This document shows positions 2,848 through 33,490 of a stretch of DNA of 64,000 nt, piece after piece. The position numbers and the translations under genes were made by a program. Source of the stretch: Elusimicrobia bacterium RIFOXYA2_FULL_39_19 (GTDB lineage: Bacteria; Elusimicrobiota; Endomicrobiia; CG1-02-37-114; XYA2-FULL-39-19); NCBI GenBank assembly GCA_001800285.1, contig MGVC01000005.1, positions 18,476-82,475 on the forward strand. Direction: 5' to 3'. The notes beneath the pieces were generated by a model, which did no database searches, was not told the origin of the DNA, and was given only the letters and a program-made list of their open reading frames with translations. Each line of letters begins with the position of its first letter. Position 1 is the first letter of the stretch.

Positions 2848-4026
2848 CTATATTCCCAAATCTGTGGGCGCCCGGCCTATACTGCGCAGCAGGGCAATAA
2901 CTCTGCTGATATTAGCGGTTACTTTTATGTCTGTACCGGCTCTTTGGGGATAGATTTCATAAAGTTTCCGGTATTTTTCGGGTGTCAGGTTTATCATCAG
3001 CGAATTTCCGCCCGCCATTAAACCGCTTTTGGCGCCGTTTTCTTTATCCAGCGTTTCTAATGATGTGGTAACAAGTATTTTTGCTTCCGGGCAGGCAAGG
3101 CGCGCTTTGGCTATGGCGTTTAACGCCAGTTCCAAAGACGGTTTGTTTTCATTTGCCAGCGGTGTCTGCGGATGCGGTATAAAAGGCCCGAAAGAAAACA
3201 TATCCGTGCCAAGCGCTGTAGTAAGTTTGATATCATTTTCTAAATCTTCCCGGGTCTGCCCCGGCAGGCCTGCTAAAAATCCGGTAAAAATCAGGTAACC
3301 CATGTCCCGCAGCTGTTTAATCAGTTCCAGGCGTTTATTAAAATCACTGTCCGGTTTCATTTTTTTATATAACTGCGGATTGCTGGTTTCAAACCTTAAC
3401 AGCACGCCGCGGGCGCCTTCGTCATACAGGCGTTTATAAAAAGATATATCTTTTTCCCCTACGCTTAAAATAAGCAGTATGGGTGTTTTTTCCATTATGG
3501 ATTTTACTACAGAACCCATTATTTCTGCTGTATAGCTGTCATCTTCACCGGACTGCAGGACCAGCGCTTTAAAACCGTGCAGATTTATTGCGTCAGCCGC
3601 CGACTGAATAATTTCATCGGGCTCCATTTGGTATCTTTTAAGCTGTTTATTATCTTTTCTTAAACCGCAGTACAGGCAGTTATGTTTGCAGTAGTTTGAA
3701 AATTCTATTATTCCGTGCACACAGCAGGAATTGCCGGAATATTTATGGCGCACGGCATTGGCCTTTTCATACATGGTTTTTGTTTCCCGGGCAAGGTTTT
3801 TATCTACCTGTGCAAGCTCATGAAACATTTCTTTCCAGGACTCCAGCACCGGCAGGGCCTCGCGCTCTGATATTCTTTGGATTACCAGCCCGCCCTGGGC
3901 ATAAATGTATTCGCCTAAAGCAAGGTTATAAAATTCATTTCTTGCTTTCTTTTGCTCACCGAAGTATTCTACGGTGATTATTTTATCGTTAATTTCTACT
4001 ACTTTTCCCGGAATGGCGTAGCACAT
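2848..4026 (-). CDS. hydE: [FeFe]-hydrogenase maturase HydE (radical SAM) with an N-terminal HypC/HupF-like domain
   Basis: aa 1-~70, MCYAIPGKVVEINDKIITVEYFGEQKKARNEF..LGEYIYAQGGLVIQRISEREA, follow the HypC pattern (Met-Cys-x-AIPGKVVEI ... GDYVLVHxGxAI..EEA). aa ~95-392 match HydE as I recall it from Thermotoga: IIEFSNYCKHNCLYCGLRKDN (CX3CX2C), LQSGED, GLPGQT, FGPFIPHPQTPLANE. Confidence 0.8.
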   Translation of the reverse strand: MCYAIPGKVVEINDKIITVEYFGEQKKARNEFYNLALGEYIYAQGGLVIQRISEREALPVLESWKEMFHELAQVDKNLARETKTMYEKANAVRHKYSGNSCCVHGIIEFSNYCKHNCLYCGLRKDNKQLKRYQMEPDEIIQSAADAINLHGFKALVLQSGEDDSYTAEIMGSVVKSIMEKTPILLILSVGEKDISFYKRLYDEGARGVLLRFETSNPQLYKKMKPDSDFNKRLELIKQLRDMGYLIFTGFLAGLPGQTREDLENDIKLTTALGTDMFSFGPFIPHPQTPLANENKPSLELALNAIAKARLACPEAKILVTTSLETLDKENGAKSGLMAGGNSLMINLTPEKYRKLYEIYPQRAGTDIKVTANISRVIALLRSIGRAPTDLGI

Positions 4027-4040: not shown

Positions 4041-5411
4041 TCAGTAAAACAAATCCCGTTCTCCATTTTTTATCTGCGCCAGTTTATCTGTTACCTGCGC
4101 ACGCATTTTCTTATCTTCAATTTTGTTTAAATAATGGTTTATTAATTTATAGCCGGGTTTGTAGGCGCCGTTTTGTTTTGCAAAATCTTCCAGATATTCA
4201 GCAAAGGTCAGCAGGCCGTTTACCCGGCAGAATTTATGTATTTCACCTGGTTTGGACAGTTCCATGAAATGTTCACCGGTCCTGCCCAGCCGGTAACATG
4301 CCGTGCAGAAACTTGGCAGCAGTTTTTGCGGCAGAATGGATTTTATAACTTCGCTTAAAGAACGTTCATCACTTACTTCAAACTGCACGCCCTTTTTTTT
4401 GTTTCCGTAACCGCCCACTTCCGTAACACTGGCGGCGGACGCCTGGGAAATACCCAGTTTAAAAGCCTGTTTTCTTATCTGCGCGCTTTCCCGGGTGCTG
4501 ATAATCATGCCTGTGTAAGGGACAGCAAGGCGCAGTATGGCAATAAGTTTTAAAAAGTCATTATCTGCTACCGGATATTCCGGCTTATAAGTTACAGACG
4601 GCGCTGGCCGGAATCTGGGTACAGAAATAGTGTGCGGGCCGGTGCCGTGCTTTTTTTCCAGGTAATCTGCGTGCATAATAAGAGCCAGCACCTCAAAGCG
4701 CCAGTCATAAAGCCCGAATAAAACACCGAGGCCTATATCATCAAGGCCTGCTTTGAATGCTTTATCATACGCGGTTAACTGCCTTTGATAATCTGCTTTT
4801 AAGCCTGTATGCAGTTTTTCAAAAGTTTCTTTGTGGTAAGTTTCCTGAAAGAGCTGGTAGGTGCCTATTTTTGATTTTTTAAGTTTCCTGTAATTTTCTT
4901 CAGTGGTGGCGGCAATGTTTACGTTTATCCGGCGTATTGAACCCCTGGGTGTTTTTACAGAGTATATGGTTTCTATGGCTTTGGTTATGTAATCAATGGT
5001 ATTTTTTTCACTGTCTTCGCCAAGCTCCAGCAAGACTCTTTTGTGGCCTGCATTAATAAGGTACGTTACCTGGGCCTTAATTTCTTCAAAAGAAAGTTTT
5101 TTTCTTTTAAGCGCGGTATTTTCTTTATGAAAATTGCAATAATCGCAGTTATTAACGCAGTAATCGGAAATATACAGCGGGGCAAAAAATACAATTCTTT
5201 CGCCGTAAATTTCGTTTTTAATATGGTTTGCCGTTTCAAATAGCTTATTGATAAGTTTTTTGTTTTTTAGGTTTAGCAGTATGCCCGCTTCTTTAAGACT
5301 GAGGCCTTTTTTCTGACGGGCTTTTTTAAGTACTGCTAAAACAGCTTTATCAGCAGGACTTTGTGTCTGCTTTAAAATACCGTTTATAACCTGTTCATTT
5401 ATTATGTTCAT
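4041..5411 (-). CDS. hydG: [FeFe]-hydrogenase maturase HydG (tyrosine-lyase type radical SAM)
   Basis: Radical SAM motif CVNNCDYCNF. The C-terminal CTACYRLGRTGEHFMELSKPGEIHKFC is CX2CX22C, the auxiliary-cluster motif that distinguishes HydG from ThiH. The ORF opens at 5498, but the ATG at 5411 (MNIINEQ..) has an AGGAAAA RBS, and the 29 upstream codons overlap a hairpin, so I prefer 5411. Confidence 0.85.
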   Translation of the reverse strand: MNIINEQVINGILKQTQSPADKAVLAVLKKARQKKGLSLKEAGILLNLKNKKLINKLFETANHIKNEIYGERIVFFAPLYISDYCVNNCDYCNFHKENTALKRKKLSFEEIKAQVTYLINAGHKRVLLELGEDSEKNTIDYITKAIETIYSVKTPRGSIRRINVNIAATTEENYRKLKKSKIGTYQLFQETYHKETFEKLHTGLKADYQRQLTAYDKAFKAGLDDIGLGVLFGLYDWRFEVLALIMHADYLEKKHGTGPHTISVPRFRPAPSVTYKPEYPVADNDFLKLIAILRLAVPYTGMIISTRESAQIRKQAFKLGISQASAASVTEVGGYGNKKKGVQFEVSDERSLSEVIKSILPQKLLPSFCTACYRLGRTGEHFMELSKPGEIHKFCRVNGLLTFAEYLEDFAKQNGAYKPGYKLINHYLNKIEDKKMRAQVTDKLAQIKNGERDLFY

Positions 5412-5648: not shown

Positions 5649-5999
5649 TTACTTATCGCCTTCTATGCTTTCAAGATATATGTCTTTCCCCGAAACCAGC
5701 TCAATATTTTTGCTTTTACATTTCGGGCACCCATCAAAAGTAATGGTGTCCGCAGTAATTTCTTCCCCGCAATTCAGGCATTTTGAGCGCAGGGGCTCTT
5801 TTATTACAACAAGTTTTGCTTTGTCTGCTATGGTGCCGGGAAATATATGATCTATAAAACTGTGGCGCAACAGGTCTTCCAGCACACCGCCGGCTTCGCC
5901 TAGCTTTACTGTTACCTTGGTTACTTTTTTGAGGTTATTGTGCTTGGCTTCTATTAATAGTTTTTCAAACAAGTCTCTTGCTATACCGGTTTCATGCAT
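5649..5999 (-). CDS. hypA: [NiFe]-hydrogenase nickel-insertion protein HypA
   Basis: 116 aa with an MHETGIARDL N-terminus (the MHE metal-binding start typical of HypA) and a zinc site CLNCGEE..x..CPKCKS (CxxC-Xn-CxxC). Confidence 0.85.
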   Translation of the reverse strand: MHETGIARDLFEKLLIEAKHNNLKKVTKVTVKLGEAGGVLEDLLRHSFIDHIFPGTIADKAKLVVIKEPLRSKCLNCGEEITADTITFDGCPKCKSKNIELVSGKDIYLESIEGDK

Positions 6000-21514: not shown

Positions 21515-22141
21515 TTATTTTATGCCGTATTCATCAAAAAGATGAACCTGATGGCGGCATTTGGGGCATGATATTTTGAAGATGTCCGGCCTTGCAATGT
21601 CTTTTATTTCGGTTTTGGGTTTATTGTTTTGGCTTAAATCCATTGATTGCTGGTAGGTTGAAAAAAGCGCGTAATTTCCGTAAGCCATGTGGCCTAATTT
21701 ATTAAACACCCACAGCAACTGGCTTATAGGGGCAATTACAGTGCTGCATTTTTCACACAGGAGCAGTTCTTTTTCTACGCCGGAAAATAGCGTTTTTCTG
21801 TCAAAGGTTGCCAGGTCAAATTCTGTATTGGAAAGTTTTACGCCTTTCTGCGTGGTGCATAGGCGCTCGCACTGCCCGCAGAATACACAAAGGTCATAAT
21901 GCCAGATTATACTGCGGTTAAAAACACCATCATTATCAGCAGATTCTTTTACTTCTATGGCCTGTGCCGGGCAGACTTCTGCGCAGGCACCGCAGGCAAT
22001 ACATTCATCCTGATTAGGGATAGGTTTACCGCGGAATCTTTTTTCCGGGACGTGCGGTTCATAAGGGAACCTTGAAGTATAGGGCCCTTTGATTAACGCT
22101 TTTATTGCTTCGCCAAGTTCTCTAAGTTTTGGATATCTCAT
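21515..22141 (-). CDS. NuoI/HycF/MbhN-like 2x[4Fe-4S] hydrogenase subunit with a C-terminal Cys-rich extension
   Basis: CIACGACAEVCP and CVFCGQCERLC ferredoxin motifs, plus CEKCS...CPKCRH in the C-terminal third. The ORF opens with TTG at 22177. The ATG at 22141 (MRYPKLRELG) is preferred. Confidence 0.75.
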   Translation of the reverse strand: MRYPKLRELGEAIKALIKGPYTSRFPYEPHVPEKRFRGKPIPNQDECIACGACAEVCPAQAIEVKESADNDGVFNRSIIWHYDLCVFCGQCERLCTTQKGVKLSNTEFDLATFDRKTLFSGVEKELLLCEKCSTVIAPISQLLWVFNKLGHMAYGNYALFSTYQQSMDLSQNNKPKTEIKDIARPDIFKISCPKCRHQVHLFDEYGIK

Positions 22142-22200
22142 ATAAGTATTAACGCTGAACGCTAAATTGAAAATCAATAAATATAAAACCTACAATAAAG

Positions 22201-22524
22201 TTATTTGTCTTTTTCATAATGGTCACAGACTGATTTTTCCCACGGCTTTACGCCGGAAAGATGTGCGGCGCGTGAAATAGCGTGGGCAGATACCGGCGCT
22301 GTAAGCAGTAAAAATAATGCGCAAAATATTGCTTTTATACCCACATCAGTAAATCCGTGGATTACAAATACGCCCAGCATAATGCCGCAGGTGCCGAACG
22401 TTACACATTTTATTGAGGCATGAAGCCGGTTATATAAATCCGGAAGCCTTACTAAACCCAAGCAGCCAATAAAATCAAAGGTTATCCCTATTCCTATAAA
22501 TATATACCCTATTAAATCAATCAT
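22201..22524 (-). CDS. mnhG: Mrp/Mnh antiporter subunit G
   Basis: Small 3-TM protein containing GCLGLVRLPDLYNRLHA, typical of MnhG/PhaG. The ATG at 22524 overlaps the mnhF stop codon (ATGATTGA). Confidence 0.75.
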   Translation of the reverse strand: MIDLIGYIFIGIGITFDFIGCLGLVRLPDLYNRLHASIKCVTFGTCGIMLGVFVIHGFTDVGIKAIFCALFLLLTAPVSAHAISRAAHLSGVKPWEKSVCDHYEKDK

Positions 22525-22852
22525 CAAATTTTTTCCCCTCAAGATATTTTGCCAGGGCAATAGTTGCAATAAAAGACTGCAGCGCCCACGCTATGGCTAT
22601 TTCAATAAAAAATATTTTATCTGTAAATACCGTTAAAACTCCGCAAAAACCTATGACCAGAATACCCAGAATATCTATGGCTACTACGCGGTCCGCCGGG
22701 GTTGGCCCCTTGTAAATCCTCCACAGGCATAATATACAAGAAGGAATAAGAAAGTTCACCATTCTCATAAGAGGTGAAAACTCATATTTCAGATTTACGG
22801 CTATTATCAACGCTATAAGTATCAGCCCTATAAACCAGCGTAATAATTTCAT
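22517..22852 (-). CDS. mnhF: Mrp/Mnh antiporter subunit F
   Basis: 111 aa, 3 TM, with LWRIYKGPTPADRVVAIDILG typical of MrpF. Confidence 0.75.
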   Translation of the reverse strand: MKLLRWFIGLILIALIIAVNLKYEFSPLMRMVNFLIPSCILCLWRIYKGPTPADRVVAIDILGILVIGFCGVLTVFTDKIFFIEIAIAWALQSFIATIALAKYLEGKKFDD

Positions 22853-22863
22853 TTTATATACCT

Positions 22864-23358
22864 TTATTCAAATATTTTTCCCAATATTTTTTCGTATTTG
22901 CCTATTATTATTTCTGTTGCTTTATCAATATCTTCGGTTTCCACGTTCATCCAGTGAACATAGAGATAACCGTTTTCACTGTCTACGTCTACGGTGAAAG
23001 TGCCGGGGGTAAGCGTGATTGTGTTTGCCAGATAAGTCAGGGCAGAATCACTGCGTAAATTTGTTTTTACTTTTACAATACCGGGTTTTATAGGAAGGCC
23101 CGGGTGCAGTATTCTGTAGGCGCCGTCAATATTTCCTTTTACCATTTCCCATATAAATACCCATATATAATAAACCGCCCATATATATCTTGCATGCTGT
23201 TTGAATTTCCAGGGGTTACGAGTTAATATATCGCCTACAGCCCAGGCAATAAATAAACTGATAATAACACCTGTCAGTAAATACTGCCAGTCTAAAGACC
23301 AGGTAAGGGCTACCCAGAAAACAAATGCCAATAGAAATGATAACGCTCTGCTTTTCAT
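22864..23358 (-). CDS. mnhE: Mrp/Mnh antiporter subunit E
   Basis: 164 aa with two N-terminal TM segments and a soluble C-terminal part (TLTPGT motif). Its position between the D and F subunits supports the call. Confidence 0.65.
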   Translation of the reverse strand: MKSRALSFLLAFVFWVALTWSLDWQYLLTGVIISLFIAWAVGDILTRNPWKFKQHARYIWAVYYIWVFIWEMVKGNIDGAYRILHPGLPIKPGIVKVKTNLRSDSALTYLANTITLTPGTFTVDVDSENGYLYVHWMNVETEDIDKATEIIIGKYEKILGKIFE

Positions 23359-23372
23359 GACTCGCCTTTTAT

Positions 23373-24845
23373 TTATTTCATAACTGCATCAGCATAACTT
23401 GAACCGTTTATTAATACATTAACTGCCGGGTCAAGCACTATAGCTTTTAAAGCGGGAACGTAAAGCAAACCCAACCCAATACATACCGCCGCTAAAACAA
23501 TCATTGAAACACACATGGATACGGGTGCTTCCTTTATACCTGCCCACTTGCTTTTCAGCTCACCGAAAAACACGTGCTTTTGAAGCTTAAGATAATATGA
23601 CAGGGTAATTATACTTATGATTACGGCAATAAAAGCCCCCATATACTGACCGGCCTGTATGGCGGCAACAATTATCAGCAACTTGCTCCAGAAGCCGCCG
23701 AAGGGCGGTATGCCTGATATGGACATGGAACCTATTATTGAAGTTATGGAAGTAACGGGCATTTTTTTCCCGAAACCGCCCATTTCACGGATATCGCGGA
23801 TATCATCTGCGGCATTTACTACGGCACCGGCAGTCATAAACATTAATGCTTTTGCATAAGCATGGTTTACCAGGTGAAATAAAGCCGCAAAATAACCCAG
23901 CGGCGTACCCAAACCCAAAGCAAAAAAGATATAGCCAATCTGGCTGATGGTTGAATAAGCCAGCATACGTTTAATATCATTCTGATAAACTGCCAGTATA
24001 CCGCCAAGAATAATTGAAGCCGTGCCCATAATCAGAAATGTTTTGCTTATCAGCAGGGTTATACCAAACACGTTAAACATAACGCGCAGTAATGTATAAA
24101 TACCCAGGGATTTTACCAGCACACCGGATAATAATGCTGAAATAGGAGACGGCGCCGAAGAATGTGCGTCAGGCAGCCAGGCATGAAAAGGAACAATGGC
24201 TGATTTCATGCCGGCACCGATTAAAAATAATACAATTACAAAACTAATCAGTTTATTGTCAGGCTTTTGTGCCAATATCTGCGCCATGTCCGCCATATTC
24301 AAAGTTGATGTGTAAGCATAGAGAAGGCAGACACCCATTAGAATAAACAACAAACCAACAGTATTAAGAACCGCATATTTAAAAGATGCTTCCAACTCTT
24401 CTGCGCGAGTACCGAACGCCACCAGTGCATAAGATGCCACGCCGCCTACTTCTATCCAGATAAGCAGGTTGAATAAATCTCCGGTAAGCACTGCTGCGTT
24501 CATACTGGCAAGCATAACCAGATATAGGGCAAAGTAAGTCCATTTTGAAGTATATTTACCTATGTAGCCAATAGAATAATTGGCGGCAACAAAAACAATT
24601 GTATTTATAATAACAAGAATTAAAATGCTTAACCCGTCAGCTACCAGGTTTATGCCCAGAGGCGGCGCCCAGCCGCCGATGTTGTAGGAGGTAAACCCGC
24701 CTTTAATAAGAAGTTTTAACGATAACACCATAAGAACAAAAGTAACCAGCCAGGTTATGGTATAGCTGACTTTTCTGGAATATTTTCCTGTTACGGAAAT
24801 TATAAAAGCGCCTGCTAACGGAATGATTATAAATAAAGGAAGCAT
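23373..24845 (-). CDS. mnhD: Mrp subunit D, NuoM/N-type antiporter-like subunit
   Basis: 490 aa polytopic protein with the conserved segments HAWLPDAHSSAPSPISALLSG and MLAYSTISQIGY of proton-translocating NuoL/M/N-family subunits. Confidence 0.8.
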   Translation of the reverse strand: MLPLFIIIPLAGAFIISVTGKYSRKVSYTITWLVTFVLMVLSLKLLIKGGFTSYNIGGWAPPLGINLVADGLSILILVIINTIVFVAANYSIGYIGKYTSKWTYFALYLVMLASMNAAVLTGDLFNLLIWIEVGGVASYALVAFGTRAEELEASFKYAVLNTVGLLFILMGVCLLYAYTSTLNMADMAQILAQKPDNKLISFVIVLFLIGAGMKSAIVPFHAWLPDAHSSAPSPISALLSGVLVKSLGIYTLLRVMFNVFGITLLISKTFLIMGTASIILGGILAVYQNDIKRMLAYSTISQIGYIFFALGLGTPLGYFAALFHLVNHAYAKALMFMTAGAVVNAADDIRDIREMGGFGKKMPVTSITSIIGSMSISGIPPFGGFWSKLLIIVAAIQAGQYMGAFIAVIISIITLSYYLKLQKHVFFGELKSKWAGIKEAPVSMCVSMIVLAAVCIGLGLLYVPALKAIVLDPAVNVLINGSSYADAVMK

Positions 24846-24848
24846 ATT

Positions 24849-25193
24849 TTAACCCTTGAGTTTATTGAGCTCTCTTATGTCATACGTGCCGTACTTATCA
24901 TAAATTCTCATTGCAATTGTTATAAGCAGAAAAGTTACTGCAAGGCTCATGACAACAAGTGTTAATATCATAGCCTGCACTACAGGGTCTACCATGGCAT
25001 CCGGGCGCGGCTCTGTCAGTGAAGTAAACACAGGAATAGTAGCGCCGTTTTTATAACCTACTAAAATAAGAAAGACATTCATGGAGTATTCCATAATGGA
25101 TAAACCAATAATTATTTTTATAAGGTTTCTTTTTATCAGTATTGCATAGAGGCCTAAGGTAAATAGTATAAAAGTAAGAATGTATTCAATCAT
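24849..25193 (-). CDS. mnhC: Mrp subunit C (NuoK-like)
   Basis: 114 aa, 3 TM. Size and position match MrpC/NuoK. Confidence 0.7.
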   Translation of the reverse strand: MIEYILTFILFTLGLYAILIKRNLIKIIIGLSIMEYSMNVFLILVGYKNGATIPVFTSLTEPRPDAMVDPVVQAMILTLVVMSLAVTFLLITIAMRIYDKYGTYDIRELNKLKG

Positions 25194-25657
25194 TTTTTAT
25201 CCTCGCTAAGCCTGTAAAATATCAGCGCCAGAAACACGGAAAAAAAACCCGAGGCTACCGCCAGACATATTGCCAGGTTCATCAAAGGCATTATACCGGA
25301 ACTAAAAAGTGAAAATGGTTTTCCTATATAATCTACTCCCGGAGTGCGAAAAAAGTTATACATGAAATAACCTTTTGTCATTCCCAATATTCCCAGAATT
25401 AAAAAGGAAAGAGAACCTAACCCCACAAGAAACTGTATGGTTTTATCTGTTATTCTTTTCATAGCCACTTCTTTACCGAAAGCCAGCATAACGTGCATAT
25501 AAGAAAGAGCCACAATAATTCCGCCGGCAAAGCCGCCGCCGTGCACCAGATGGCCGTTCATAATGAAGTAAATACCAAACAACAGAATAAGCACCACCGT
25601 GTATCTGGTAATAGTTTTCACTATTATGGTCATGCCTTGTTCCGGTTTTTTAATCAT
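25190..25657 (-). CDS. mnhB: Mrp subunit B-like membrane protein
   Basis: 155 aa, 4 TM, containing HGGGFAGGI, typical of the MnhB domain. Confidence 0.65.
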   Translation of the reverse strand: MIKKPEQGMTIIVKTITRYTVVLILLFGIYFIMNGHLVHGGGFAGGIIVALSYMHVMLAFGKEVAMKRITDKTIQFLVGLGSLSFLILGILGMTKGYFMYNFFRTPGVDYIGKPFSLFSSGIMPLMNLAICLAVASGFFSVFLALIFYRLSEDKK

Positions 25658-25669
25658 ATTTTTTTCCTG

Positions 25670-26191
25670 TTATTGTTTCTCTTTATAGACTTTCTTCCTT
25701 ATAATCATCAGCACCGCAATAATTGAGGCAAACGCTATAGATACCTGTGCCAGCATATCAAAAGCCCTGTAATCAAGAATAATTGCAGATACAATGTTGG
25801 GCACGCCGGTTTGTACAAACCCGTTTTTAAGGTACTCTGAACCTATTTTCATAATAGGAGTTCCGAAACCCGGTATTTCAAGCAGGGCAATGTTAGCAAA
25901 TGTAAGAAAAATACCCATCAGGATAATGCTGATAGTTGTTGCAATAAATCTTCTTTCACGCACGTTTACCTTATCTTTTATTCCTACGGCACGGATAATA
26001 ATAACAAGTGAAAGAATTTCCACTACCAGCTGTAATATTGCCAGATCCGGGGATTGTAATAAAAGAAATACAATGGATAATCCCAGCCCCACTGCGCCAA
26101 TAGCTACCACCGAACCAAGTAAATCAGCCGTACCTATGGCTATAGCGGCCGCAATAATCATAAACACCAGAATAATCTGTATCTGAATCAT
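25670..26191 (-). CDS. MbhD-like / MrpA C-terminal-domain-like membrane protein
   Basis: 173 aa hydrophobic protein located between the NuoL-like subunit and the MnhB-like gene, as in Mbh/Mrp operons. Confidence 0.55.
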   Translation of the reverse strand: MIQIQIILVFMIIAAAIAIGTADLLGSVVAIGAVGLGLSIVFLLLQSPDLAILQLVVEILSLVIIIRAVGIKDKVNVRERRFIATTISIILMGIFLTFANIALLEIPGFGTPIMKIGSEYLKNGFVQTGVPNIVSAIILDYRAFDMLAQVSIAFASIIAVLMIIRKKVYKEKQ

Positions 26192-26192
26192 A

Positions 26193-28040
26193 TTACTTTC
26201 CTAAAAAAACGTACAACAGAATGGTTAAACCCATAATGCTCATGGCAAGGTAAATATGCATATTACCTGTATGCATCAGTGCTAACGCTGAAGCGAAAGC
26301 ATTCACAATAGCTTTTCCCCAGTCATAAATATCAAACACTTTTTTCTGGGCCAGCGCATAAGTTTGATCAAATATTTTTATTTCCTTAATAGTCTGGTAA
26401 AAATCTACGCCTGTTACCCTCTGGTTTTCCGGCAGCACTTCTCCGCCGATAAATATTTTATGCCGTTTTATTACAGACCCGAGACTGAAACTCGCCAGGA
26501 AAATAATAATGCCTATAATAATACACGCTATCAGAAGCATTGTGGCCAGTTCCGGCTGCCAGAAACCAATAAGATTTCCGCTTAACTGCAGATTAAATGC
26601 TGATAATGAAGGAATAATAAAATACTTTAAAGGAAGCGCAAAGGCAAACACGCCAAACACAATACAAAGCCCGGCAAGTAAAAGCTGGGGCAGCCACATC
26701 TGCCAGTTTACTTCGCCTTTTTGTTCATTTTTTTTCTGAGCGAAAAATATTGCATGAATAAGTTTCATAAAGCTTGCCAGTGTAAGGGCGGACCCAAACA
26801 TAGCCGCCACCAAACACACTAAAGCAATAATTTGAAATTTGGGTGATGCATTTTGAAATTGTGTTATCAGCCCCTGGTAAATCATCCACTTGGAAACAAA
26901 ACCGTTAAATGGCGGAACACCTGAAATAGACATAGACGCTATAAAAAACGCCGCAAAAGTCAGCGGCATGCCCGCTTTGCCTGCCAACGCGCCCAGTTTA
27001 TCTAAATCTGTGGTACCGGTTTTCTTTTCTATGGAACCGCCGCATAAAAAAAAGCAGGATTTGTATATTGCGTTATTTAACATATGAAATATTCCGCCTG
27101 CTATGCCCACCGGGTTTCCCGTGGCAAGGCCTAATATCATATAACCAACTTGTGAAACAGCGTGATAGGAAAGCAGTTTTTTCAGGTCATGTTGTATCAT
27201 GGCCATAAAAACAGCGGCAATAATCGTAACTGCACCTATAAACATAAGAAAAGCCGTTAACGGCAAACTTAAAGAAAACAAATTAAGTGAAATTCTGGCA
27301 AGCAGATAAATACCCAGCAGTTTATCCAGTGATGCCGGAAGAAGGGCAATTACCGGGGCAGGCGTTACAGGAGCCATATCTGGTATCCATGTATGAAAAG
27401 GCATAGCCCCTGCTTTTGCAAACGCTCCTATAGCCAAACATAAAAACGCTGTAAGAGCCAGCGTTGAATCTGCGGTTGAAAGAAATATTTTATCCATCTG
27501 CAAAGTACCGGTTAAAACCCAGATAATTGCAATACCTAAAATCATAAGGCAGTCTGAACCACCTACTATGATAAAGGTTTTCTTTGCCGCATCTTTTGAA
27601 TCCGGCGAATTTGATTGTATGAGAACATAAAGCGTTAAACCCAGAAAACCCCAGAAAACAAGCATTAATATCAGATTGTTTGCCAGCACACAGCCCAACG
27701 CCGCACTTATTGACCATAAAACAGATGTATAATAAAAACTTGAAATTGAAAATTTGTCTGTTTTAGGAAAGAATTTTGTTGAATATAGTATTACCAGTAT
27801 ACCAAACAAAGCAATGAACAGCACCAGAAAACGGTTGAAATTATCTATACGGAAAAGTTCTAAACCAAAAAGCTGAAAGTTAACGGGATTTGTTCTAAAA
27901 ATAATAAAAGTCATCAGAAATACAGCAATGGAACCGGCAAGTGCAAGCAGCTCGGCAATTAGCCTCTGCTTTTTAGGAATAACTGCGCAGACAAGCCCTG
28001 CGACAAACGGCACAGCTAATAAATATAAAATTAAATCCAT
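26193..28040 (-). CDS. MrpA/NuoL-type antiporter-like subunit
   Basis: 615 aa polytopic protein with HTWIPDMAPVTPAPVIALLPAS and LLSYHAVSQVGYM conserved segments. Confidence 0.8.
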   Translation of the reverse strand: MDLILYLLAVPFVAGLVCAVIPKKQRLIAELLALAGSIAVFLMTFIIFRTNPVNFQLFGLELFRIDNFNRFLVLFIALFGILVILYSTKFFPKTDKFSISSFYYTSVLWSISAALGCVLANNLILMLVFWGFLGLTLYVLIQSNSPDSKDAAKKTFIIVGGSDCLMILGIAIIWVLTGTLQMDKIFLSTADSTLALTAFLCLAIGAFAKAGAMPFHTWIPDMAPVTPAPVIALLPASLDKLLGIYLLARISLNLFSLSLPLTAFLMFIGAVTIIAAVFMAMIQHDLKKLLSYHAVSQVGYMILGLATGNPVGIAGGIFHMLNNAIYKSCFFLCGGSIEKKTGTTDLDKLGALAGKAGMPLTFAAFFIASMSISGVPPFNGFVSKWMIYQGLITQFQNASPKFQIIALVCLVAAMFGSALTLASFMKLIHAIFFAQKKNEQKGEVNWQMWLPQLLLAGLCIVFGVFAFALPLKYFIIPSLSAFNLQLSGNLIGFWQPELATMLLIACIIIGIIIFLASFSLGSVIKRHKIFIGGEVLPENQRVTGVDFYQTIKEIKIFDQTYALAQKKVFDIYDWGKAIVNAFASALALMHTGNMHIYLAMSIMGLTILLYVFLGK

Positions 28041-28042
28041 TT

Positions 28043-29257
28043 TTATTCCGTAATACCCATTTTCTTTTTCAGTTCCCGGGTTTTTTCCTGGCTGAGTTTT
28101 ATTAAATCACTGCCGCCTAATATTTTCTTATTGGTGTTTTTATCAATTACAACGCATCTTTCTGTACAGCAATAGCACGGGTCTACCGCTCCTAAGGTGA
28201 TAGCGGCGTCAGAAATAGTTCCCTTGATTGCGGTAATTTCATTTGTTGGCACATTTACATAAGAAGGGGCGCGGATTTTATGCCTTACCGGCCTGTTGGA
28301 ACCGTCTGAACGCACAAAGTGGAACACTTCCCCTCTGGGCGCTTCGTGCCGGCCTATGCCTTCACCTGCAGGAATGTTTTTTATTTTAAGATCAAAATTG
28401 CCTTCCGGCTCTTTTTTCAGGCCGTTTAAACAACCGCGTATTATTTTCACAGATTCGTACATCTCTAAAACACGTACTACAATTTTATCAAAGATATCAC
28501 CGTTAACGGCAGTAATAACTTTCCAATCTACCATACCGTAAGCGGCATATGGATTATCCCTGCGGATATCAATATCTACGCCGCTTGCTCTTGCTAGCGG
28601 GCCGACAGCGCAGAAATCTATAGCTTCTTTTTTTGTAAGCGGACAGATGCCTTTGGCTCTGGCTTGAATTACCGGGTCATCCATGACAGCGCCCTTGAAA
28701 AGGTCTATATAAGGAAGCAGGCCATCAAGCATTTTTTCCATTCTGGGAATATCTTCATTCAAAATATCTAAACGGACCCCACCGATTTTAAACATTGAAT
28801 AATGCTGGCGGTTACCGGTAATGTACTCCATAACATCTAATAACGGCTCTCTGGCTTTCCAGACCCACATCCATACAGTATTGTATCCTATAAAATGCCC
28901 CGCAAGTCCCAGCCAAAGCAAATGCGAGTGCAGTCTTTCAAGTTCGCCAACTATGGAACGGATATATTTGGTTCTGTCGGTCACTTCTATGCCTGCAAGA
29001 TCTTCTACGGCATTTACATAAGCAAACGGGTGTGAAGTGGAACAAATACCGCAGATTCTTTCAACAGTGAAAGCTACCTGGTCAAAGTGTTTGCTTTCGG
29101 AAATTTTTTCTATGCCACGGTGGTTATAACCGATTTCTATATCCAGTTTTTCCACTTTTTCGCCGTTTACAAACAGCTTGAAAAATTCAGGCTCTTCCTG
29201 AAGCGGATGATACGGCCCTATCGGTATAACAGTTTGTTTTTTCTTTTCTTCTTCCAT
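28043..29257 (-). CDS. Group 4 [NiFe]-hydrogenase large (catalytic) subunit, NuoD/MbhL/EchE-like
   Basis: N-terminal Ni-Fe ligand motif RICGICSTSH and C-terminal motif DPCYCCTER, followed by a 37 aa tail. Confidence 0.9.
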   Translation of the reverse strand: MEEEKKKQTVIPIGPYHPLQEEPEFFKLFVNGEKVEKLDIEIGYNHRGIEKISESKHFDQVAFTVERICGICSTSHPFAYVNAVEDLAGIEVTDRTKYIRSIVGELERLHSHLLWLGLAGHFIGYNTVWMWVWKAREPLLDVMEYITGNRQHYSMFKIGGVRLDILNEDIPRMEKMLDGLLPYIDLFKGAVMDDPVIQARAKGICPLTKKEAIDFCAVGPLARASGVDIDIRRDNPYAAYGMVDWKVITAVNGDIFDKIVVRVLEMYESVKIIRGCLNGLKKEPEGNFDLKIKNIPAGEGIGRHEAPRGEVFHFVRSDGSNRPVRHKIRAPSYVNVPTNEITAIKGTISDAAITLGAVDPCYCCTERCVVIDKNTNKKILGGSDLIKLSQEKTRELKKKMGITE

Positions 29258-29272
29258 TTGCTTTCCCTTGCC

Positions 29273-29333
29273 CCGTCTGCCTTTGCAGGACGGATAATTC
29301 TAATGCTCTAAGCTCTAATTTCTAATGCTCTAC
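29273..29333 (-). repeat. Intercistronic hairpin plus an array of five UAG-containing 7-8 nt units
   Basis: The minus strand after the stop codon reads TAG AGCAT TAG AAAT TAG AGCT TAG AGCAT TAG AAT. Next comes CCGTCCTGC-AAAG-GCAGACGG (an 8 bp stem with one bulge), and then the RBS of the large-subunit gene. Confidence 0.5.
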
Positions 29334-29764
29334 TTCTCCGTCTGCCTTAACGGGTATTTGCCTTCCGGCCAGTCTTCTGCCAGAAGCAATCTTTTCATAT
29401 TCGGATGATTTTTAAAATTTATGCCCAGCATTTCCCAGATTTCACGCTCAATCCATTCGGCTCCGCGGATAAGCGGTGTGATAGAATCTATTTCCGGTTT
29501 ATCTTTTTCGTTTAAGTAAACGCGCAGGGTTATGACTTCGCCTGTTTTGTCATAAGAAAAATGGTACATTATTTCAAACCCGGTCCTTAAATGAACCCCG
29601 GTGGCTGTAATGAAACGGCTTTCTAAACCGTTAAACATTATTTTTGTGCATTCAATGATGTCATGCGGATTTATTTCCAGATAATGGCGTTTCTCGTTTT
29701 TCTTGAAATAATTTTTTACTTTATTTCCCAGTTTTTCTCTTGCTTTTTCTATAATGCTTTCCAT
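29330..29764 (-). CDS. NuoC/MbhK-like hydrogenase subunit
   Basis: 144 aa with ...AEWIEREIWEMLGINFKNHPNMKRLL..., typical of the 30 kDa NuoC family. Confidence 0.8.
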   Translation of the reverse strand: MESIIEKAREKLGNKVKNYFKKNEKRHYLEINPHDIIECTKIMFNGLESRFITATGVHLRTGFEIMYHFSYDKTGEVITLRVYLNEKDKPEIDSITPLIRGAEWIEREIWEMLGINFKNHPNMKRLLLAEDWPEGKYPLRQTEK

Positions 29765-29775
29765 TTTATTCCTGT

Positions 29776-30201
29776 TTATAAACCTTTAAGTTTTTTTATC
29801 AGCTTTACCACGCCCATTATCATGGCTTCAGGCTTCGGCGGGCAGCCCGGGACATACGCATCAACGGGTATTATTTCATCCAGTGGTTTTACGAAATTAT
29901 AGGAATCCCTGAACATATTACCTCCGCAGGCGCAGCTGCCTATGGCTATAACAACACCGGGCTTGGGCATCTGTTCATAAACTTCTTTTATCCTGGGGGC
30001 TGTTTTCATGTTTGGTACGCCGGTAACCAGCATGGCATCGGCATGTTTTATACTGCCTACCAGAGATATACCAAAACGTTCCACGTCATGCCTGGGTGTA
30101 AGCAGGTCAAGAATTTCTATATCGCAGTTGTTGCACGGGCTACAAGCCGCGTGATAAACCCAGATTGATTTGGTAAGCGCTTTGATAACTATTTTTTTCA
30201 T
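29776..30201 (-). CDS. NuoB/MbhJ-like [NiFe]-hydrogenase small subunit
   Basis: Cys ligands CSPCNNC ... GSCACGG ... GCPPKPE. Confidence 0.85.
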   Translation of the reverse strand: MKKIVIKALTKSIWVYHAACSPCNNCDIEILDLLTPRHDVERFGISLVGSIKHADAMLVTGVPNMKTAPRIKEVYEQMPKPGVVIAIGSCACGGNMFRDSYNFVKPLDEIIPVDAYVPGCPPKPEAMIMGVVKLIKKLKGL

Positions 30202-31110
30202 TTATAATCCGATTAACGCCAGAATTACTGCAATTAAGGACAATCCTGCGCCGTAGGTCCAGAAAAACTTTACGGCCTGGTCTATTCTTAAACGCGGATT
30301 TGTGTTTTTTATAAGTATTATTATTACAAGAACTCCAGCAAATTTAAGTAAGTTGTACAAAAAATCTGCAGAAGGCATAAACAGGGCTACAAGAAAACTA
30401 GGCAAAACAAAAAGCATAATCCATTTTGTAAGCTTAAATATTGCCAGAGGCGTGCCGGAATATTCTACTGCCGGGCCTGCAATAATTTCCTGTTCCGCTT
30501 CCGGAATGTCAAAAGGTGTCAAGCAAAGTTTTGCCTGGATACATAAAATTGCCACAATAAAAGCAATTATGCCTGAAGCTGATGTAATAACTGCCGGATT
30601 TGCCAACTGATAAGTTACTATGTCGCCCATTCTTATACTGCCTGTTTTTATGATGACAGTGAGAATACTTAAAATAAAAGGAATCTCATAAGAAAGAATT
30701 AGTTTCATTTCTCGGCTTGCGCCGATAGATGCTATAGGATTATTGGAAGCAAAACCGCCAATTATTACCGCTATTGAAGGAATGGCCAGCAGATAGATTA
30801 CTACAATTAAATCTCCTATAAAGGTTTTGCCGGGTACAAGCATGGCATTCCATACTATTACTGACACCAGGGTGATAGCGGCCAGCCCGAAAACCGGAGC
30901 GGACAAAAACGTAAATACAGAGGTCTGTTCCGGCACAGAAATTTCTTTGCCCAGCAATTTTACGAAATCATAAACCGGTTGTAACAAAGGAGGGCCTTTA
31001 CGCCACTGGACCCTGGCTGATACCTTTCTGTCAATATAAACAGCCAGCATTCCGAAAACTGCGGAAAACAAAAAACCCGGAAAAATTAAATAATCAAAAA
31101 ATGTGCTCAT
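30202..31110 (-). CDS. NuoH/HycD/MbhM-like membrane subunit
   Basis: 302 aa polytopic protein with RKVSARVQWRKGPP and EAEQEIIAGPAVEYSG segments typical of the NuoH family. Confidence 0.8.
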   Translation of the reverse strand: MSTFFDYLIFPGFLFSAVFGMLAVYIDRKVSARVQWRKGPPLLQPVYDFVKLLGKEISVPEQTSVFTFLSAPVFGLAAITLVSVIVWNAMLVPGKTFIGDLIVVIYLLAIPSIAVIIGGFASNNPIASIGASREMKLILSYEIPFILSILTVIIKTGSIRMGDIVTYQLANPAVITSASGIIAFIVAILCIQAKLCLTPFDIPEAEQEIIAGPAVEYSGTPLAIFKLTKWIMLFVLPSFLVALFMPSADFLYNLLKFAGVLVIIILIKNTNPRLRIDQAVKFFWTYGAGLSLIAVILALIGL

Positions 31111-31111
31111 T

Positions 31112-31645
31112 TTATTTTACTACTCCGGCTTTTGCATCTTTTTTCCATGGTATACCATGGACTGCCAGGTGGTCATTTATTATATAAATGTTTTTTTCTG
31201 CCGATTCTTCAACTTCAACATATTTAAGCGCTTTGTTTGGGCAGGTTTCTACACAGAGCGGGTCTTTATCATCAGACCTTCCCGCACAATAATCACAACC
31301 GGAAGATTTATAAGGAAGTATGTCAGGATATATTGTACCAAACGGGCAAGCTACGCTGCAGGATTTACAGGAAGTGCATTTCATCATAAACCGCTGTAAT
31401 ATACCCGCATCATCTTTGCCCAGGGCTTCCTGCGGGCAGGCATTAACACAGAACTTTTCTTCGCATCTTCTGCAGACTACGTACTGGGCCGCTTTTGAAA
31501 GCATCTTTTCCGGGCCGTTGTTTGTTATAGGCGTTTTTAAAAGGTTTTCTGTGTTATGATAAAAGTAACTGCATTTGGCAGAACAGCACTTATCCTGATT
31601 TTTGCATTTGTAGCAGATTTCTATGTCTAAAAGTATTCTTTTCAT
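31112..31645 (-). CDS. HycB/HydN-like poly-[4Fe-4S] ferredoxin
   Basis: Four Cys clusters, including CRRCEEKFCVNACP, CTSCKSCSVACP and CDYCAGR...PLCVETCP. Confidence 0.75.
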   Translation of the reverse strand: MKRILLDIEICYKCKNQDKCCSAKCSYFYHNTENLLKTPITNNGPEKMLSKAAQYVVCRRCEEKFCVNACPQEALGKDDAGILQRFMMKCTSCKSCSVACPFGTIYPDILPYKSSGCDYCAGRSDDKDPLCVETCPNKALKYVEVEESAEKNIYIINDHLAVHGIPWKKDAKAGVVK

Positions 31646-31647
31646 GT

Positions 31648-32475
31648 TTAATCCCAGATTTCCGGTTCATCCTTCAGTTGTTCATAAGTGAAAACCGGAC
31701 CATCTTTACAACAATAGTGAGGGCCGACACCGCAATGCCCGCATTTTCCCAGCCCGCAGCTCATATTTCTTTCCATGGAAAGATACGTATTTTCAGGGTT
31801 ATAACCCTGCTGGTATATTTTAAGCGTGGCAAATTTCATCATTATCGGCGGCCCGCAGACAATTACCGCGGCATTATCTCTGTCTGCATTTACTTTATCA
31901 AGCAAACAGGTGACTAAGCCCACTGTTTCATCCCATTTTACATTTTCCGGACATTTATCTACGCTTCTTACAATTTCAAGGCCCTTTATTTCTTTCCATT
32001 TCGGGAAAAGATATTTATAAACTACATCATCCGGTGTTTTGGAACCGTAACATAAAGTAATTTTTTTGAATTTTTCAATTTGTTCAATCAAAGTCAGAAG
32101 CAGTGACCGCAGAGGAGCCAACCCTACCCCTCCGCCGACTATCAGCACTTCATGGTTAAAATATTTTTCTACCGGGTAGCCTTTGCCGTAAGGGCCTCTT
32201 AAACCAACAGTATCTCCGGGTTTAAGGGCATGAATTTTTTCTGTGTTTACACCCACCTTCATTATGGTAAATTCCATGGTATCTTTAACTGAAGGAGAAG
32301 ATGACGGCGTAAAGGCAGATTCTCCGATACCCGCTATTGTAACCAGCATGAACTGGCCGGTTTGAAAAGCTATAGGCTGTTTGGGCCTGAAGACAAAAGT
32401 TTTGATGGAAGCTGTTTCATCAATTACTTTTTCAACCGTTGCTTCTATGGGAAGATAGGGATTAACCTGGCTCAT
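31648..32475 (-). CDS. FAD/NAD(P)-binding oxidoreductase with a C-terminal [2Fe-2S]. Resembles AsrB, sulfhydrogenase gamma and PyrK.
   Basis: FNR-like fold signatures (VLIVGGGVGLAPLRSLL, VIVCGPP) and C-terminal CGLGKCGHCGVGPHYCCKDGPVF. Confidence 0.75.
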   Translation of the reverse strand: MSQVNPYLPIEATVEKVIDETASIKTFVFRPKQPIAFQTGQFMLVTIAGIGESAFTPSSSPSVKDTMEFTIMKVGVNTEKIHALKPGDTVGLRGPYGKGYPVEKYFNHEVLIVGGGVGLAPLRSLLLTLIEQIEKFKKITLCYGSKTPDDVVYKYLFPKWKEIKGLEIVRSVDKCPENVKWDETVGLVTCLLDKVNADRDNAAVIVCGPPIMMKFATLKIYQQGYNPENTYLSMERNMSCGLGKCGHCGVGPHYCCKDGPVFTYEQLKDEPEIWD

Positions 32476-32479
32476 ATAG

Positions 32480-33490
32480 TTAACTTTCTGCGCTTAGTTT
32501 TTTTACTACGTCGCGGATATCAATTTTGCCGGGGCATACAGAAATACAGCGGCCGCAGCCGGTACAAGCATAGATGCCAAAATTAGTTTTTCTGTAATTT
32601 AATTTGCACTGGTACCTGTTTCTGAATCTTTCATGGATTTTCGGCCTGGCATTTCCGCCGCCGGCCACTTTGCCGTGAGTAGTGTAATGGCAGGCGTCCC
32701 AGTAGCGATACTTAGCATTAGCTTCAGTTAAGTAGAAACAATAACAGCTGGGGCAGATGTTGTTGCAGCCGGTGCACTGAACACAGGTTTTACAGTATTC
32801 TTTCCAGCTTTCTGATAGATACTTTCTTCCTGCTAAACCCTTAAAATCAATATCTTTTATACTTTTATAATTAACATTTATGCGGTCAAGCGTTTTTACT
32901 GCAGAGTCACGCATTTCTTCTCTTTTAGATAGCTCTGTATCAACTGCATCCCTGAAAAACGCCTGGGCCTGAGCTATGATTTCTTCTGCAACAACTGAAA
33001 TCACATCTACTACATAACCGTCATCAACTGGAGAAAAATTAAGGTCAAAACTTTTATTTTCATAGGCCTGAGCAAACGGATTGCCGCCTATAAAGGTGCA
33101 GAAACAGGTATCTTTTGGGGTTGGGCAATCTGAAGCAAAGATGAGCGTATTAGCCAGCTTGTTTTCTACAAACGGGTCAGTGCATACTCCGCCTAAATAT
33201 ACTTCTTTTATTATTTTCAGGGCATTCAAGTCACAGGCTTTTACACCAAAGATTATTGTTTTCTTTTCCAAATTAAGAGAGGCCGTATCCAGTTTTTCGT
33301 TGTGATTAAAGAAAAAAGACCTTAAGGGCAGGTTGGCGCGGACATTATCGATGCTTATATCAATTGACGGGCCATTAGCGGAATACTTTTTGTAGGCATC
33401 ATTATCAGCAAGGTAGTAGATATCATTATCTACCGATAGCGTGCCTAAAAAATCGTTTAAATCTTTCTTAAAAATAAATTGTGATTTCAT
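32480..33490 (-). CDS. AsrA / sulfhydrogenase beta-like iron-sulfur subunit
   Basis: CKTCVQCTGCNNICPSCYC and CTGCGRCISVCPGKIDI motifs, paired with the gamma-like gene 4 nt downstream. Confidence 0.7.
   Translation of the reverse strand: MKSQFIFKKDLNDFLGTLSVDNDIYYLADNDAYKKYSANGPSIDISIDNVRANLPLRSFFFNHNEKLDTASLNLEKKTIIFGVKACDLNALKIIKEVYLGGVCTDPFVENKLANTLIFASDCPTPKDTCFCTFIGGNPFAQAYENKSFDLNFSPVDDGYVVDVISVVAEEIIAQAQAFFRDAVDTELSKREEMRDSAVKTLDRINVNYKSIKDIDFKGLAGRKYLSESWKEYCKTCVQCTGCNNICPSCYCFYLTEANAKYRYWDACHYTTHGKVAGGGNARPKIHERFRNRYQCKLNYRKTNFGIYACTGCGRCISVCPGKIDIRDVVKKLSAES

Follow-up and report, generated by a model that had tools for sequence, protein, structure and literature searches.

We analyzed a stretch of 64,000 nucleotides from Elusimicrobia bacterium RIFOXYA2_FULL_39_19 (contig MGVC01000005.1, positions 18,476 to 82,475; hereafter, the window). 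The stretch carries a gene that encodes a HypC-like domain fused to the N-terminus of HydE, a radical S-adenosylmethionine (SAM) maturase of [FeFe] hydrogenases. The encoded protein belongs to a monophyletic HydE subfamily with an N-terminal HypC-fold domain, which forms a two-gene cassette with HydG and, in some organisms, a single gene. The presence of the fusion gene in operons of [NiFe] hydrogenases suggests an unrecognized way of building the iron-carbonyl-cyanide center of the [NiFe] enzymes. Further, the recipient is probably the [NiFe] large subunit in most lineages, including this one.

The open reading frame (ORF) of the fusion gene starts with MCYAIPGKVVEI and contains no internal stop or frame break, and no alternative start is present between its ATG and the preceding in-frame stop. 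An identical protein (OGS23056.1, from an Elusimicrobia metagenome-assembled genome, MAG) is encoded on several independently assembled contigs, and the same architecture was present in the 160 loci that we retrieved from two collections. These comprised 80 loci of a genome set, which are the best 80 of at least 399 genomes that encode a relative when one genome per species is scanned, and 80 loci of a metagenome set. AlphaFold (AF2), with 30 homologs in the input, predicted the fusion alone as a confident single chain (predicted local distance difference test, pLDDT, 91.9; predicted template modeling score, pTM, 0.91). In this model, five strands lie within amino acids (aa) 6-52 and a long helix (aa 54-78) leads into the barrel, such that the C-terminal helix of HypC continues into a shortened N-terminal helix of HydE. 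Relatives of ~430 aa retain ~40 extra residues in this connector (long versus short linker variants). A reading of this DNA made previously from the letters alone (hereafter, the sequence-only reading) had proposed the fusion and asked for a hidden stop or frameshift to be sought. The fusion is genuine, because both domains were assigned independently by profile and by structure and the architecture recurs in hundreds of species. An artefact of assembly or gene calling that joins two genes is exceedingly improbable given the continuous frame, the several independent assemblies and the confident single chain, and is refuted by the conservation of the architecture across hundreds of species in both collections.

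The first ~70 aa, which had been read as HypC/HupF, matched Pfam HupF_HypC over aa 1-63 (E = 7.8e-12; 45.6 bits against a gathering score of 28.5), and a separate profile search with aa 1-90 gave 50 bits for the same model. The NCBIfam model TIGR00074 scored 41.9-46.3 bits, just under its cutoff of 48, so that membership in HypC is clear for Pfam and borderline for NCBIfam. In a PDB sequence search, aa 1-67 matched HypC of T. kodakarensis (2z1c; E = 4e-9). Further, a model of aa 1-80 (pLDDT 91.4) showed an OB-like beta-barrel followed by a C-terminal helix, and its nine best PDB matches were all HypC, with template modeling (TM) scores of 0.76-0.81; the best match was again 2z1c (TM 0.76/0.81, root-mean-square deviation 2.4 A).

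HypC uses its N-terminal cysteine to carry the Fe(CN)2(CO) fragment in [NiFe] maturation. The window protein begins MCYAIPGK, and the Met-Cys-x-x-x-Pro start was invariant in an alignment of 30 sequences (A1), as were M1, C2, Y3, I5, P6, Y42, Q44 and G46, which include the motif YAQGG. A Met-Cys start was found in 77 of the 80 genome-set loci, and the mean column conservation of the HypC-like domain was 0.74 versus 0.73 for the HydE core. The conserved histidine in the last strand of HypC, which we take to be His51 in E. coli numbering, corresponds to the invariant Gln44 within YAQGG when the domain is aligned to HypC by eye. Thus, the domain resembles HypC/HybG/HupF (PF01455; PDB 2z1c, 2ot2, 3vyr) in its OB-like five-strand barrel and C-terminal helix, its Met-Cys-x-x-x-Pro start, its size and its occurrence in [NiFe] operons with HypA, HypB and HycI. 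Unlike these proteins, it is fused to a radical SAM enzyme, has Gln in place of His, has no HypD gene nearby and scores below the TIGR00074 cutoff.

The remainder of the protein matched Pfam Radical_SAM (aa 107-268; a BATS match was weak) and the NCBIfam HydE model TIGR03956, which scored 256.2 bits against a cutoff of 254.6 (marginal) for the window protein and 265.4 bits for the relative in locus L003. The corresponding scores of the window protein were 126 for PylB and 80 for BioB. Residues 65-387 matched T. maritima HydE (TmHydE) with E = 1e-76 (core ~39% identical), and a Foldseek search with the full model returned TmHydE first (TM 0.84, normalized to the target), followed by PylB and BioB. 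A BioB or PylB identity of the radical SAM half was therefore ruled out by the TIGR scores and the Foldseek ranking, and its assignment to HydE ahead of both held. Because TIGR03956 was passed by only 1.6 bits and public annotation is inconsistent, no dedicated family model seems to exist. Like TmHydE (TIGR03956; PDB 3cix, 7o1o), the fusion possesses a (beta-alpha)8 barrel, the motifs CX3CX2C, LQSGED, RFET, GLPGQT and GPFIPHP, the M224/M291 relay, R159 and T268/T269, and an adjacent canonical HydG partner. Unlike TmHydE, it has a HypC-fold N-terminus, no auxiliary-cluster cysteines and a different set of residues at the product site, and its neighbors are [NiFe] genes, not HydF/HydA.

The sequence-only reading had taken the radical SAM half for a standard [FeFe] HydE. 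This was not borne out, since it forms a separate clade with a rebuilt product site (R54 to H, R155 to G and H52 to C in TmHydE numbering, which is used below for the comparison). In a neighbor-joining tree of the barrel cores, one bipartition united all 26 HypC-bearing sequences with one N-terminally truncated fragment; monophyly was judged by this bipartition search, and a test based on the most recent common ancestor in a midpoint-rooted tree was uninformative. The HypC-like domain was present in 21 of the best 150 representatives clustered at 50% identity. The motif just before the IIEFSN strand could be placed in 18 HypC-bearing representatives and reads C-x-H in all of them; canonical HydEs have [H/Y/F]-x-R at the same place. 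Few positions were conserved in both groups and yet different between them. They include position 54, which is His in 100% of the fusion clade versus R in 91% of canonical sequences, and position 155, which is Gly in 93% versus R in 91% (G207 in the window protein). In addition, position 52 is Cys in 100% (C102) versus H in 39%; position 134, T in 88% of canonical sequences, is not conserved in the fusion clade (I186 in the window protein). The pocket and the methionine relay (M224/M291, R159, T268/T269) are kept, with 81-98% conservation in the fusion clade; M276 and M344 of the window protein correspond to M224 and M291, and R211 and T320/T321 are likewise retained.

The S3 site of TmHydE, made up of one Thr and two Arg, lies at the barrel bottom; an iron species was seen there, and from there the product is thought to exit toward HydF (PMC10114646). 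R54 contacts the CN ligands of the 2Fe product (PMC11826987), and R54, T134 and R155 have a role in holding this product (PMC10114646, PMC11826987). Since the pocket is kept and the S3 residues are changed, the clade would retain the chemistry that consumes the HydG synthon, with the 2Fe cradle replaced by Cys, His and Gly. Further, the HypC-like domain is tethered immediately before strand beta-1, which opens with CCVH, and the topology would thus place it at the face of the barrel where the product exits. The N-terminal attachment and the changed residues both point to the product-exit rather than the substrate-entry side, judging from topology. Substrate channeling from HydG to HydE, as raised by the sequence-only reading, is possible.

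Two members of the C-x-H clade, P0142 (L093, 147-1244) and P0141 (L097, 4766-5824), do not have the HypC-like domain. The unfused P0142 gene lies between a [NiFe] large-subunit gene, whose stop codon it overlaps, and HydG. Neither P0142 nor P0141 had a separate HypC-like gene beside it; an 89-aa ORF that precedes the archaeal P0141 was considered as a split HypC, and by eye it resembles a small regulator of the helix-turn-helix (HTH) type.

The architecture is widespread. Both PF01455 and PF04055 were found in 120 of the 120 best database homologs (58-100% identity), and at least 399 species-level genomes encode a relative, which answers the earlier call for a search of public genomes. The HypC-like part was covered in all of the best 80, of which 78 align from residue 1 and two begin at a contig end. 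The bacterial carriers include Omnitrophota, Planctomycetota (including anammox lineages), Elusimicrobiota, Lentisphaerota, WOR-3, Firestonebacteria, Saganbacteria, Margulisbacteria and Spirochaetes, and the archaeal carriers include Aenigmatarchaeota, Altiarchaeota, Woesearchaeota, Micrarchaeota and Nanoarchaeota. The architecture is already in public databases under generic automatic names: some entries are called 'HydE' and others 'biotin synthase', 'radical SAM protein' or 'HypC/HybG/HupF chaperone' (e.g., P0006, P0020, P0073). The full-text literature that we searched, with incomplete coverage, and papers on hydrogenases, Elusimicrobia, Omnitrophota, Saganbacteria and archaeal hydrogenases contained no published account of the fusion, of HydG/HydE in [NiFe] operons or of the altered S3 residues, in line with the earlier statement that no characterized HypC-HydE fusion was known.

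A stand-alone HypC-like gene in a Scalindua MAG (L084; 8318-8566, plus strand) was rejected as a separate HypC, since it is a truncated copy of the first 36 codons of the fusion. This duplicate lies 1.5 kb upstream of the real gene, and an archaeal-type S-adenosylmethionine synthetase gene (8520-9722, minus strand) is present between the two on the opposite strand. The arrangement looks like a rearrangement scar beside two SAM-consuming enzymes.

HydG is the regular partner of the fusion gene. It adjoined the fusion in 105 of the 160 loci (56/80 genome, 49/80 metagenome), in either order, and the median distances between the two genes were 6-25 nt in the genome loci. The HydG of the window scored 547 bits with TIGR03955 (cutoff 312) and matched T. 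italicus HydG (4wcx) over its full length with 505 bits; its translation contains GPHTISVP and a C-terminal CX2CX22C motif (CTACYRLGRTGEHFMELSKPGEIHKFC), in agreement with the ThiH-like barrel and C-terminal domain of HydG. The mechanical ORF (4041-5498) opens at a TTG (5498, 485 aa). The shorter form that starts from the ATG at 5411 (456 aa) is likely, because OGS23057.1 and the alignments to solved HydG structures begin there.

In some organisms the cassette is a single gene: P0122 (906 aa; loci L094-L096) and P0135 (881 aa) are HypC-HydE-HydG polypeptides. The P0122 gene follows a group-3 [NiFe] operon (beta-gamma-small-large-HycI) and a gene for a cyclic nucleotide (cNMP)-binding protein. 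Another protein, P0150 (803 aa), is a HydE-HydG fusion with the canonical H-x-R signature and without a HypC domain. HydEF of Chlamydomonas reinhardtii is a fusion of H-cluster maturases. HydEF and P0150 are thus precedents for joining consecutive H-cluster maturases, and P0122 and P0135 follow the same logic; unlike the HypC-HydE fusion, HydEF and P0150 join [FeFe] maturases only.

The genes around the cassette were counted within 10 kb (~2.1 Mb of flanks in total) by tblastn of seeds and by six-frame motif scans. Neighbor families were defined by unbiased clustering of all flanking ORFs of the 80 genome loci, and Pfam confirmed them. Seeds for Hyp and HycI were taken from the annotated hyp/hyc region of E. 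coli K-12 and complemented with signature motifs (for HypD, GPGCPVC and GFETT). Because the seed for the N-terminal part of HydA cross-matches HoxU-like subunits of group-3d [NiFe] enzymes, true HydA was scored by H-cluster motifs or Pfam domains.

Genes of [NiFe] hydrogenases were present in 65 of the 160 loci: 38/80 in the genome set, where 34 of the 38 were on the same strand, and 27/80 in the metagenome set. When only loci with long flanks were considered, the counts were 16/32 (genome, at least 8 kb on both sides) and 18/40 (metagenome, at least 5 kb on one side). By our rough estimate, ~5% of 22-kb stretches taken at random would include part of a [NiFe] operon. After HydG, the commonest neighbor families were a HycI-type [NiFe] maturation endopeptidase, the large, small and diaphorase subunits of group-3 enzymes, and a group-4 large subunit with Mrp antiporter subunits; the neighboring large subunits bear Ni-Fe motifs. 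Typically, the [NiFe] structural genes come first, followed by the HycI protease or HypA/HypB and then by HydG and the fusion, often with gaps below 100 nt. The [NiFe] linkage was seen with hydrogenases of groups 3 and 4, in either gene order, with the long as well as the short linker, and in several phyla.

Genes for nickel insertion and processing were also found near the cassette. HypA was detected at 17 loci besides the window (5 genome, 12 metagenome), including the closest relatives L099-L101, HypB at 6-7 loci (3 genome, 3-4 metagenome) and the HycI-type protease at 21-22 genome and 12-14 metagenome loci. HypA and HypB often abut the fusion, as in fusion-HypA-HypB (L051) and HycI-HypA-fusion (L110, L112, L152). 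In contrast, neither the E. coli seeds nor the signature motifs detected HypD, HypE or HypF in the flanks of either set. Thus, nickel-insertion and processing genes co-localize with the cassette, which takes the place of hypCDE(F) in classical hyp clusters. The cross-talk between the two maturation pathways that the sequence-only reading had suggested is supported in a narrower form, as a cassette inside [NiFe] operons beside HycI/HypA/HypB and never beside HypD/E/F.

HydF was found in 3 of the 160 loci, two of the genome set and one of the metagenome set, the last on the same contig as a genome locus. HydA, as defined above, was found in L020, L045 and L054 of the genome set and in L146 and L135 of the metagenome set; as L135 is the contig of L045, these represent ~4 loci.

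On these grounds, we propose a mechanism in which radical SAM chemistry yields a mononuclear Fe-CO/CN fragment and the cysteine of the HypC-like domain hands this fragment to [NiFe] large subunits, replacing HypCDEF or working alongside it; we put this at about even chances. HydG would cleave tyrosine and build [Fe(Cys)(CO)2(CN)], as is established for canonical HydG, and the HydG of the window is expected to do the same chemistry given its ~55% identity and intact cluster motifs. The HydE barrel would then adenosylate the cysteine sulfur and remove the cysteine backbone to yield mononuclear Fe(CO)2(CN)S along Met276/Met344; this step is established for TmHydE and is predicted here from the conserved pocket. 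Canonical HydE would hold two such units in the R54/T134/R155 cavity and form the 2Fe dimer for HydF. In the fusion, the residue changes, topology and gene context suggest that the fragment may stay mononuclear, to be caught by Cys102/His104 at the barrel bottom and then by Cys2 of the HypC-like domain. Finally, the gene neighborhoods suggest that the HypC-like domain would dock on the large-subunit precursor in the fashion of HypC and insert the iron fragment, after which HypA/HypB would add nickel and the HycI-type protease would trim the C-terminus. The cassette would thereby do the job of HypC, HypD, HypE and HypF.

In the canonical HypCDEF route, cyanide is derived from carbamoyl phosphate through HypF/HypE, and Fe(CN)2CO is assembled on HypC-HypD. 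The proposed route would resemble it in that the N-terminal cysteine of a HypC fold gives an Fe-CO/CN fragment to the large subunit, on which HypA/HypB and the endopeptidase then act. Unlike in the canonical route, radical SAM chemistry on tyrosine would supply the diatomic ligands, and HypD/HypE/HypF are not near the cassette. The broader form of the proposal, in which HydG and HypC::HydE are a self-contained tyrosine-based pathway that fully replaces HypC, HypD, HypE and HypF in many uncultivated anaerobes and DPANN, is one that we advance tentatively and hold to be doubtful.

Several points weigh against this mechanism. Since the HydE pocket and HydG are canonical, Fe(CO)2(CN) is the predicted fragment, and [NiFe] sites need Fe(CN)2(CO); the mechanism does not explain how a fragment with two CO and one CN is converted to the standard unit with one CO and two CN. 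The hand-off between Cys2 and Cys102/His104 is a prediction from topology, and the carrier chemistry may differ from that of HypC because the HypC histidine is Gln here. In two Omnitrophota genomes (L003/L020 and L045), HydF is 4 kb and HydA of the trimeric type ~10 kb away from the cassette, and a HydA-like gene is located directly upstream of the fusion in L054 (3-1628) and L146 (6460-8271). Neither type of hydrogenase is near the cassette in approximately half of the long-flank loci, and in DPANN archaea and Saganbacteria the HydG-fusion pair is isolated, with housekeeping genes around it. The counts describe flanks, and HypCDEF, HydF and HydA may be encoded elsewhere in the genomes that bear the cassette. 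Further, the counts across loci are not fully independent because many loci are from related Omnitrophota.

The HydF and HydA loci bear on an alternative, in which the fusion is an ordinary [FeFe] HydE whose HypC-like arm passes the product to HydF/HydA or takes the synthon of HydG; its proximity to [NiFe] genes would then reflect co-regulation or clustering, with HypCDEF encoded elsewhere. We regard this as possible, though on balance improbable. It accords with a TIGR03956 score above the cutoff, with a core ~39% identical to TmHydE in which the pocket and the Met relay are conserved, with a canonical HydG and with the close HydF/HydA in L003/L020 and L045, where no second HydE was present at the locus, as well as with the adjoining HydA-like gene in L054 and L146. 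Carrier phyla and DPANN archaea possess [FeFe] hydrogenases (bioRxiv 10.1101/765248, PMC11216029). In addition, PMC10114646 leaves open which of the two proteins, HydE or HydF, is the site where the Fe units fuse, and a HydE that does not dimerize them is therefore still compatible with [FeFe] maturation. However, [NiFe] neighbors are ~20 times commoner than HydF (65 versus 3 of 160), typically in the same direction and with short gaps, and the cassette is abutted by HypA, HypB and HycI but never by HypCDEF. Further, the extra domain is specifically the fold of a [NiFe] large-subunit chaperone, the residues that hold the HydF-bound 2Fe product are lost, and the triple fusion and one unfused member of the clade are both within [NiFe] operons. 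Where HydF/HydA or a HydA-like gene is near the cassette (L003/L020, L045, L054, L146), the protein may serve [FeFe] maturation, and in a few Omnitrophota with HydF and HydA the same cassette may feed both kinds of enzyme.

Some features of these loci were recorded separately. A 730-aa radical SAM protein is encoded between the cassette and HydF in L003 (12224-14416, plus strand); it was considered as a canonical second HydE and rejected, as it gave only weak HxsC/MoaA-like matches, in its C-terminal third. The HydF of L003 (15282-16514) is 68-74% identical to HydF labeled Eremiobacterota, Pseudomonadota, Dehalococcoidia and Firmicutes (P0272-P0391). HydF thus differs much less from phylum to phylum than the fused HydE and may have spread horizontally in recent times. 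Among the 120 best HydF homologs listed, which are ~70% identical across phyla, none was on a contig that matched a fusion-bearing contig in length. In L054 and L146, which are Firestonebacteria-type contigs, the first H-cluster motif of the HydA-like gene is TSCSPGW, with Ser at the usual proton-relay Cys, and HypB is directly downstream of the fusion, giving a mixed [FeFe]/[NiFe] context.

The mismatch between the CO and CN numbers is sidestepped if the cassette supplements the Hyp pathway and, under anoxic conditions, gives only the CO ligand or a CO-bearing iron to an assembly of the HypC/HypD type. Anaerobes are known to lack HypX, and the source of CO for their [NiFe] sites is unresolved, which also counts in favor of such a supply. 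The idea shares the neighborhood evidence of the proposed mechanism, from which the present data do not separate it, and HydG is a proven biological generator of CO and CN (PMC10114646). However, the HydE barrel and the HypC-like carrier would be unexplained if free CO alone were needed, and HypA/HypB co-localize with the cassette but HypD/HypE/HypF never do. We therefore consider it unlikely.

Less probable still is that the HypC-like domain is a structural or regulatory appendage (for oligomerization or stability) that carries no metal, or that the cassette makes a cofactor for a client other than a hydrogenase. The change of His to Gln would fit such a role, as would the many loci, including all DPANN examined, without a hydrogenase gene within 10 kb. 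Against it stand the invariant Met-Cys-x-x-x-Pro of A1 with its Met-Cys start in nearly all genome-set loci, the perfect co-variation of the domain with the Cys/His change in the barrel and the strong enrichment beside hydrogenase genes; we judge it very unlikely.

If the cassette replaces HypCDEF, it would constitute a categorically new maturation pathway, and full replacement would mean a second, evolutionarily independent assembly of the [NiFe] active site and a direct bridge between [FeFe] and [NiFe] maturation. Where strict anaerobes obtain the CO ligand of their [NiFe] hydrogenases, which is unknown, becomes testable with HydG and a downstream processor inside [NiFe] operons, the latter fused to the chaperone fold by which iron is loaded into the large subunit. 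It also becomes testable how the unstable HydE product leaves and whether dimerization occurs in HydE or HydF; with its covalently attached carrier and rebuilt exit cavity, the natural variant offers a handle for trapping the HydE intermediate. Further, a two- or one-gene cassette able to mature [NiFe] enzymes would simplify heterologous hydrogenase production. The use of HydE/HydG as proof of [FeFe] capacity may mislead in Omnitrophota, Elusimicrobiota, Planctomycetota and DPANN.

The features of the window that relate to the fusion and to its presumed client are listed below.

Table. Positions of the fusion gene, its parts and the associated hydrogenase genes in the window.
Feature	Position	Strand	Basis and remarks
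HypC::HydE fusion gene	2848..4026	minus	392 aa + stop; ORF/translation, Pfam, NCBIfam; NCBI OGS23056.1
HydE (beta-alpha)8 barrel, aa 98-392	2851..3735	minus	PDB sequence match, fold search, group comparison
Radical SAM CX3CX2C (C113, C117, C120)	3667..3690	minus	aligns to C63/C67/C70 of TmHydE
C101-C102-V-H104 motif, start of barrel strand beta-1	3715..3726	minus	clade-specific; stands where TmHydE has V51-H52-I-R54
Helical connector, aa 67-97	3736..3828	minus	secondary structure of the model, helices (H) H54-78 and H85-97
HypC-fold (putative carrier) domain, aa 1-66	3829..4026	minus	Pfam, PDB match, fold search
HydG, 456 aa from ATG at 5411	4041..5411	minus	stop 14 nt before the fusion ATG
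HypA, nickel-insertion metallochaperone	5649..5999	minus	Pfam HypA 87.6 bits; upstream of HydG
Giant 4244-aa ORF	8183-20917	minus	signal-like N-terminus, repetitive, appearance of a surface protein
Group-4 Mbh-Mrp-oxidoreductase [NiFe] operon	21515..33490	minus	Pfam; 15.5 kb upstream; directly precedes the cassette in relatives
[NiFe] large-subunit precursor, 404 aa	28043..29257	minus	RICGICSTSH, DPCYCCTER, 37-aa C-terminal tail

An Mbh-Mrp-oxidoreductase type of hydrogenase was reported for some Elusimicrobia lineages (bioRxiv 10.1101/765248). Seeds from cassette-linked operons matched the operon of the window at 40-69% identity, with a weaker match (26%) for the Fer4_22 beta subunit. The large subunit of the window is 69% identical to the cassette-adjacent large subunit of L010 and is the presumed client of the maturation genes. 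HydA, HydF and HypB-F were detected neither in the window nor in the rest of the contig, which on one side has genes that include DnaE and ComEC and on the other stops shortly after the window.

L100 is the closest relative with flanks, and its fusion shares 72% identity with that of the window; its genes run Mbh...MrpF-Fer4-HypA-HydG-fusion, with ~0.85 kb of small ORFs between Fer4 and HypA. The corresponding interval of the window, between the Fer4 gene (21515) and HypA (5999), holds the 4244-aa ORF and two smaller genes. Because the operon and the cassette are nearly contiguous in L100, which lacks the giant ORF, this ORF looks like an insertion into a once-continuous hydrogenase/maturation locus. 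Scans for promoters, terminators and Rex boxes around the cassette gave counts at chance level.

Two further groups of genes were noted on the minus strand of the window. A GAF-ANTAR regulator gene and a gene for a radical SAM/SPASM enzyme (33624-35377) adjoin the upstream end of the Mbh-Mrp-oxidoreductase operon and share its strand. Four genes at 39788-43897 encode a B12-binding radical SAM protein, a ThiF-family protein, an ICMT/PEMT-like membrane methyltransferase and a beta-ketoacyl synthase, and could be a cassette for the modification of a lipid or small molecule.

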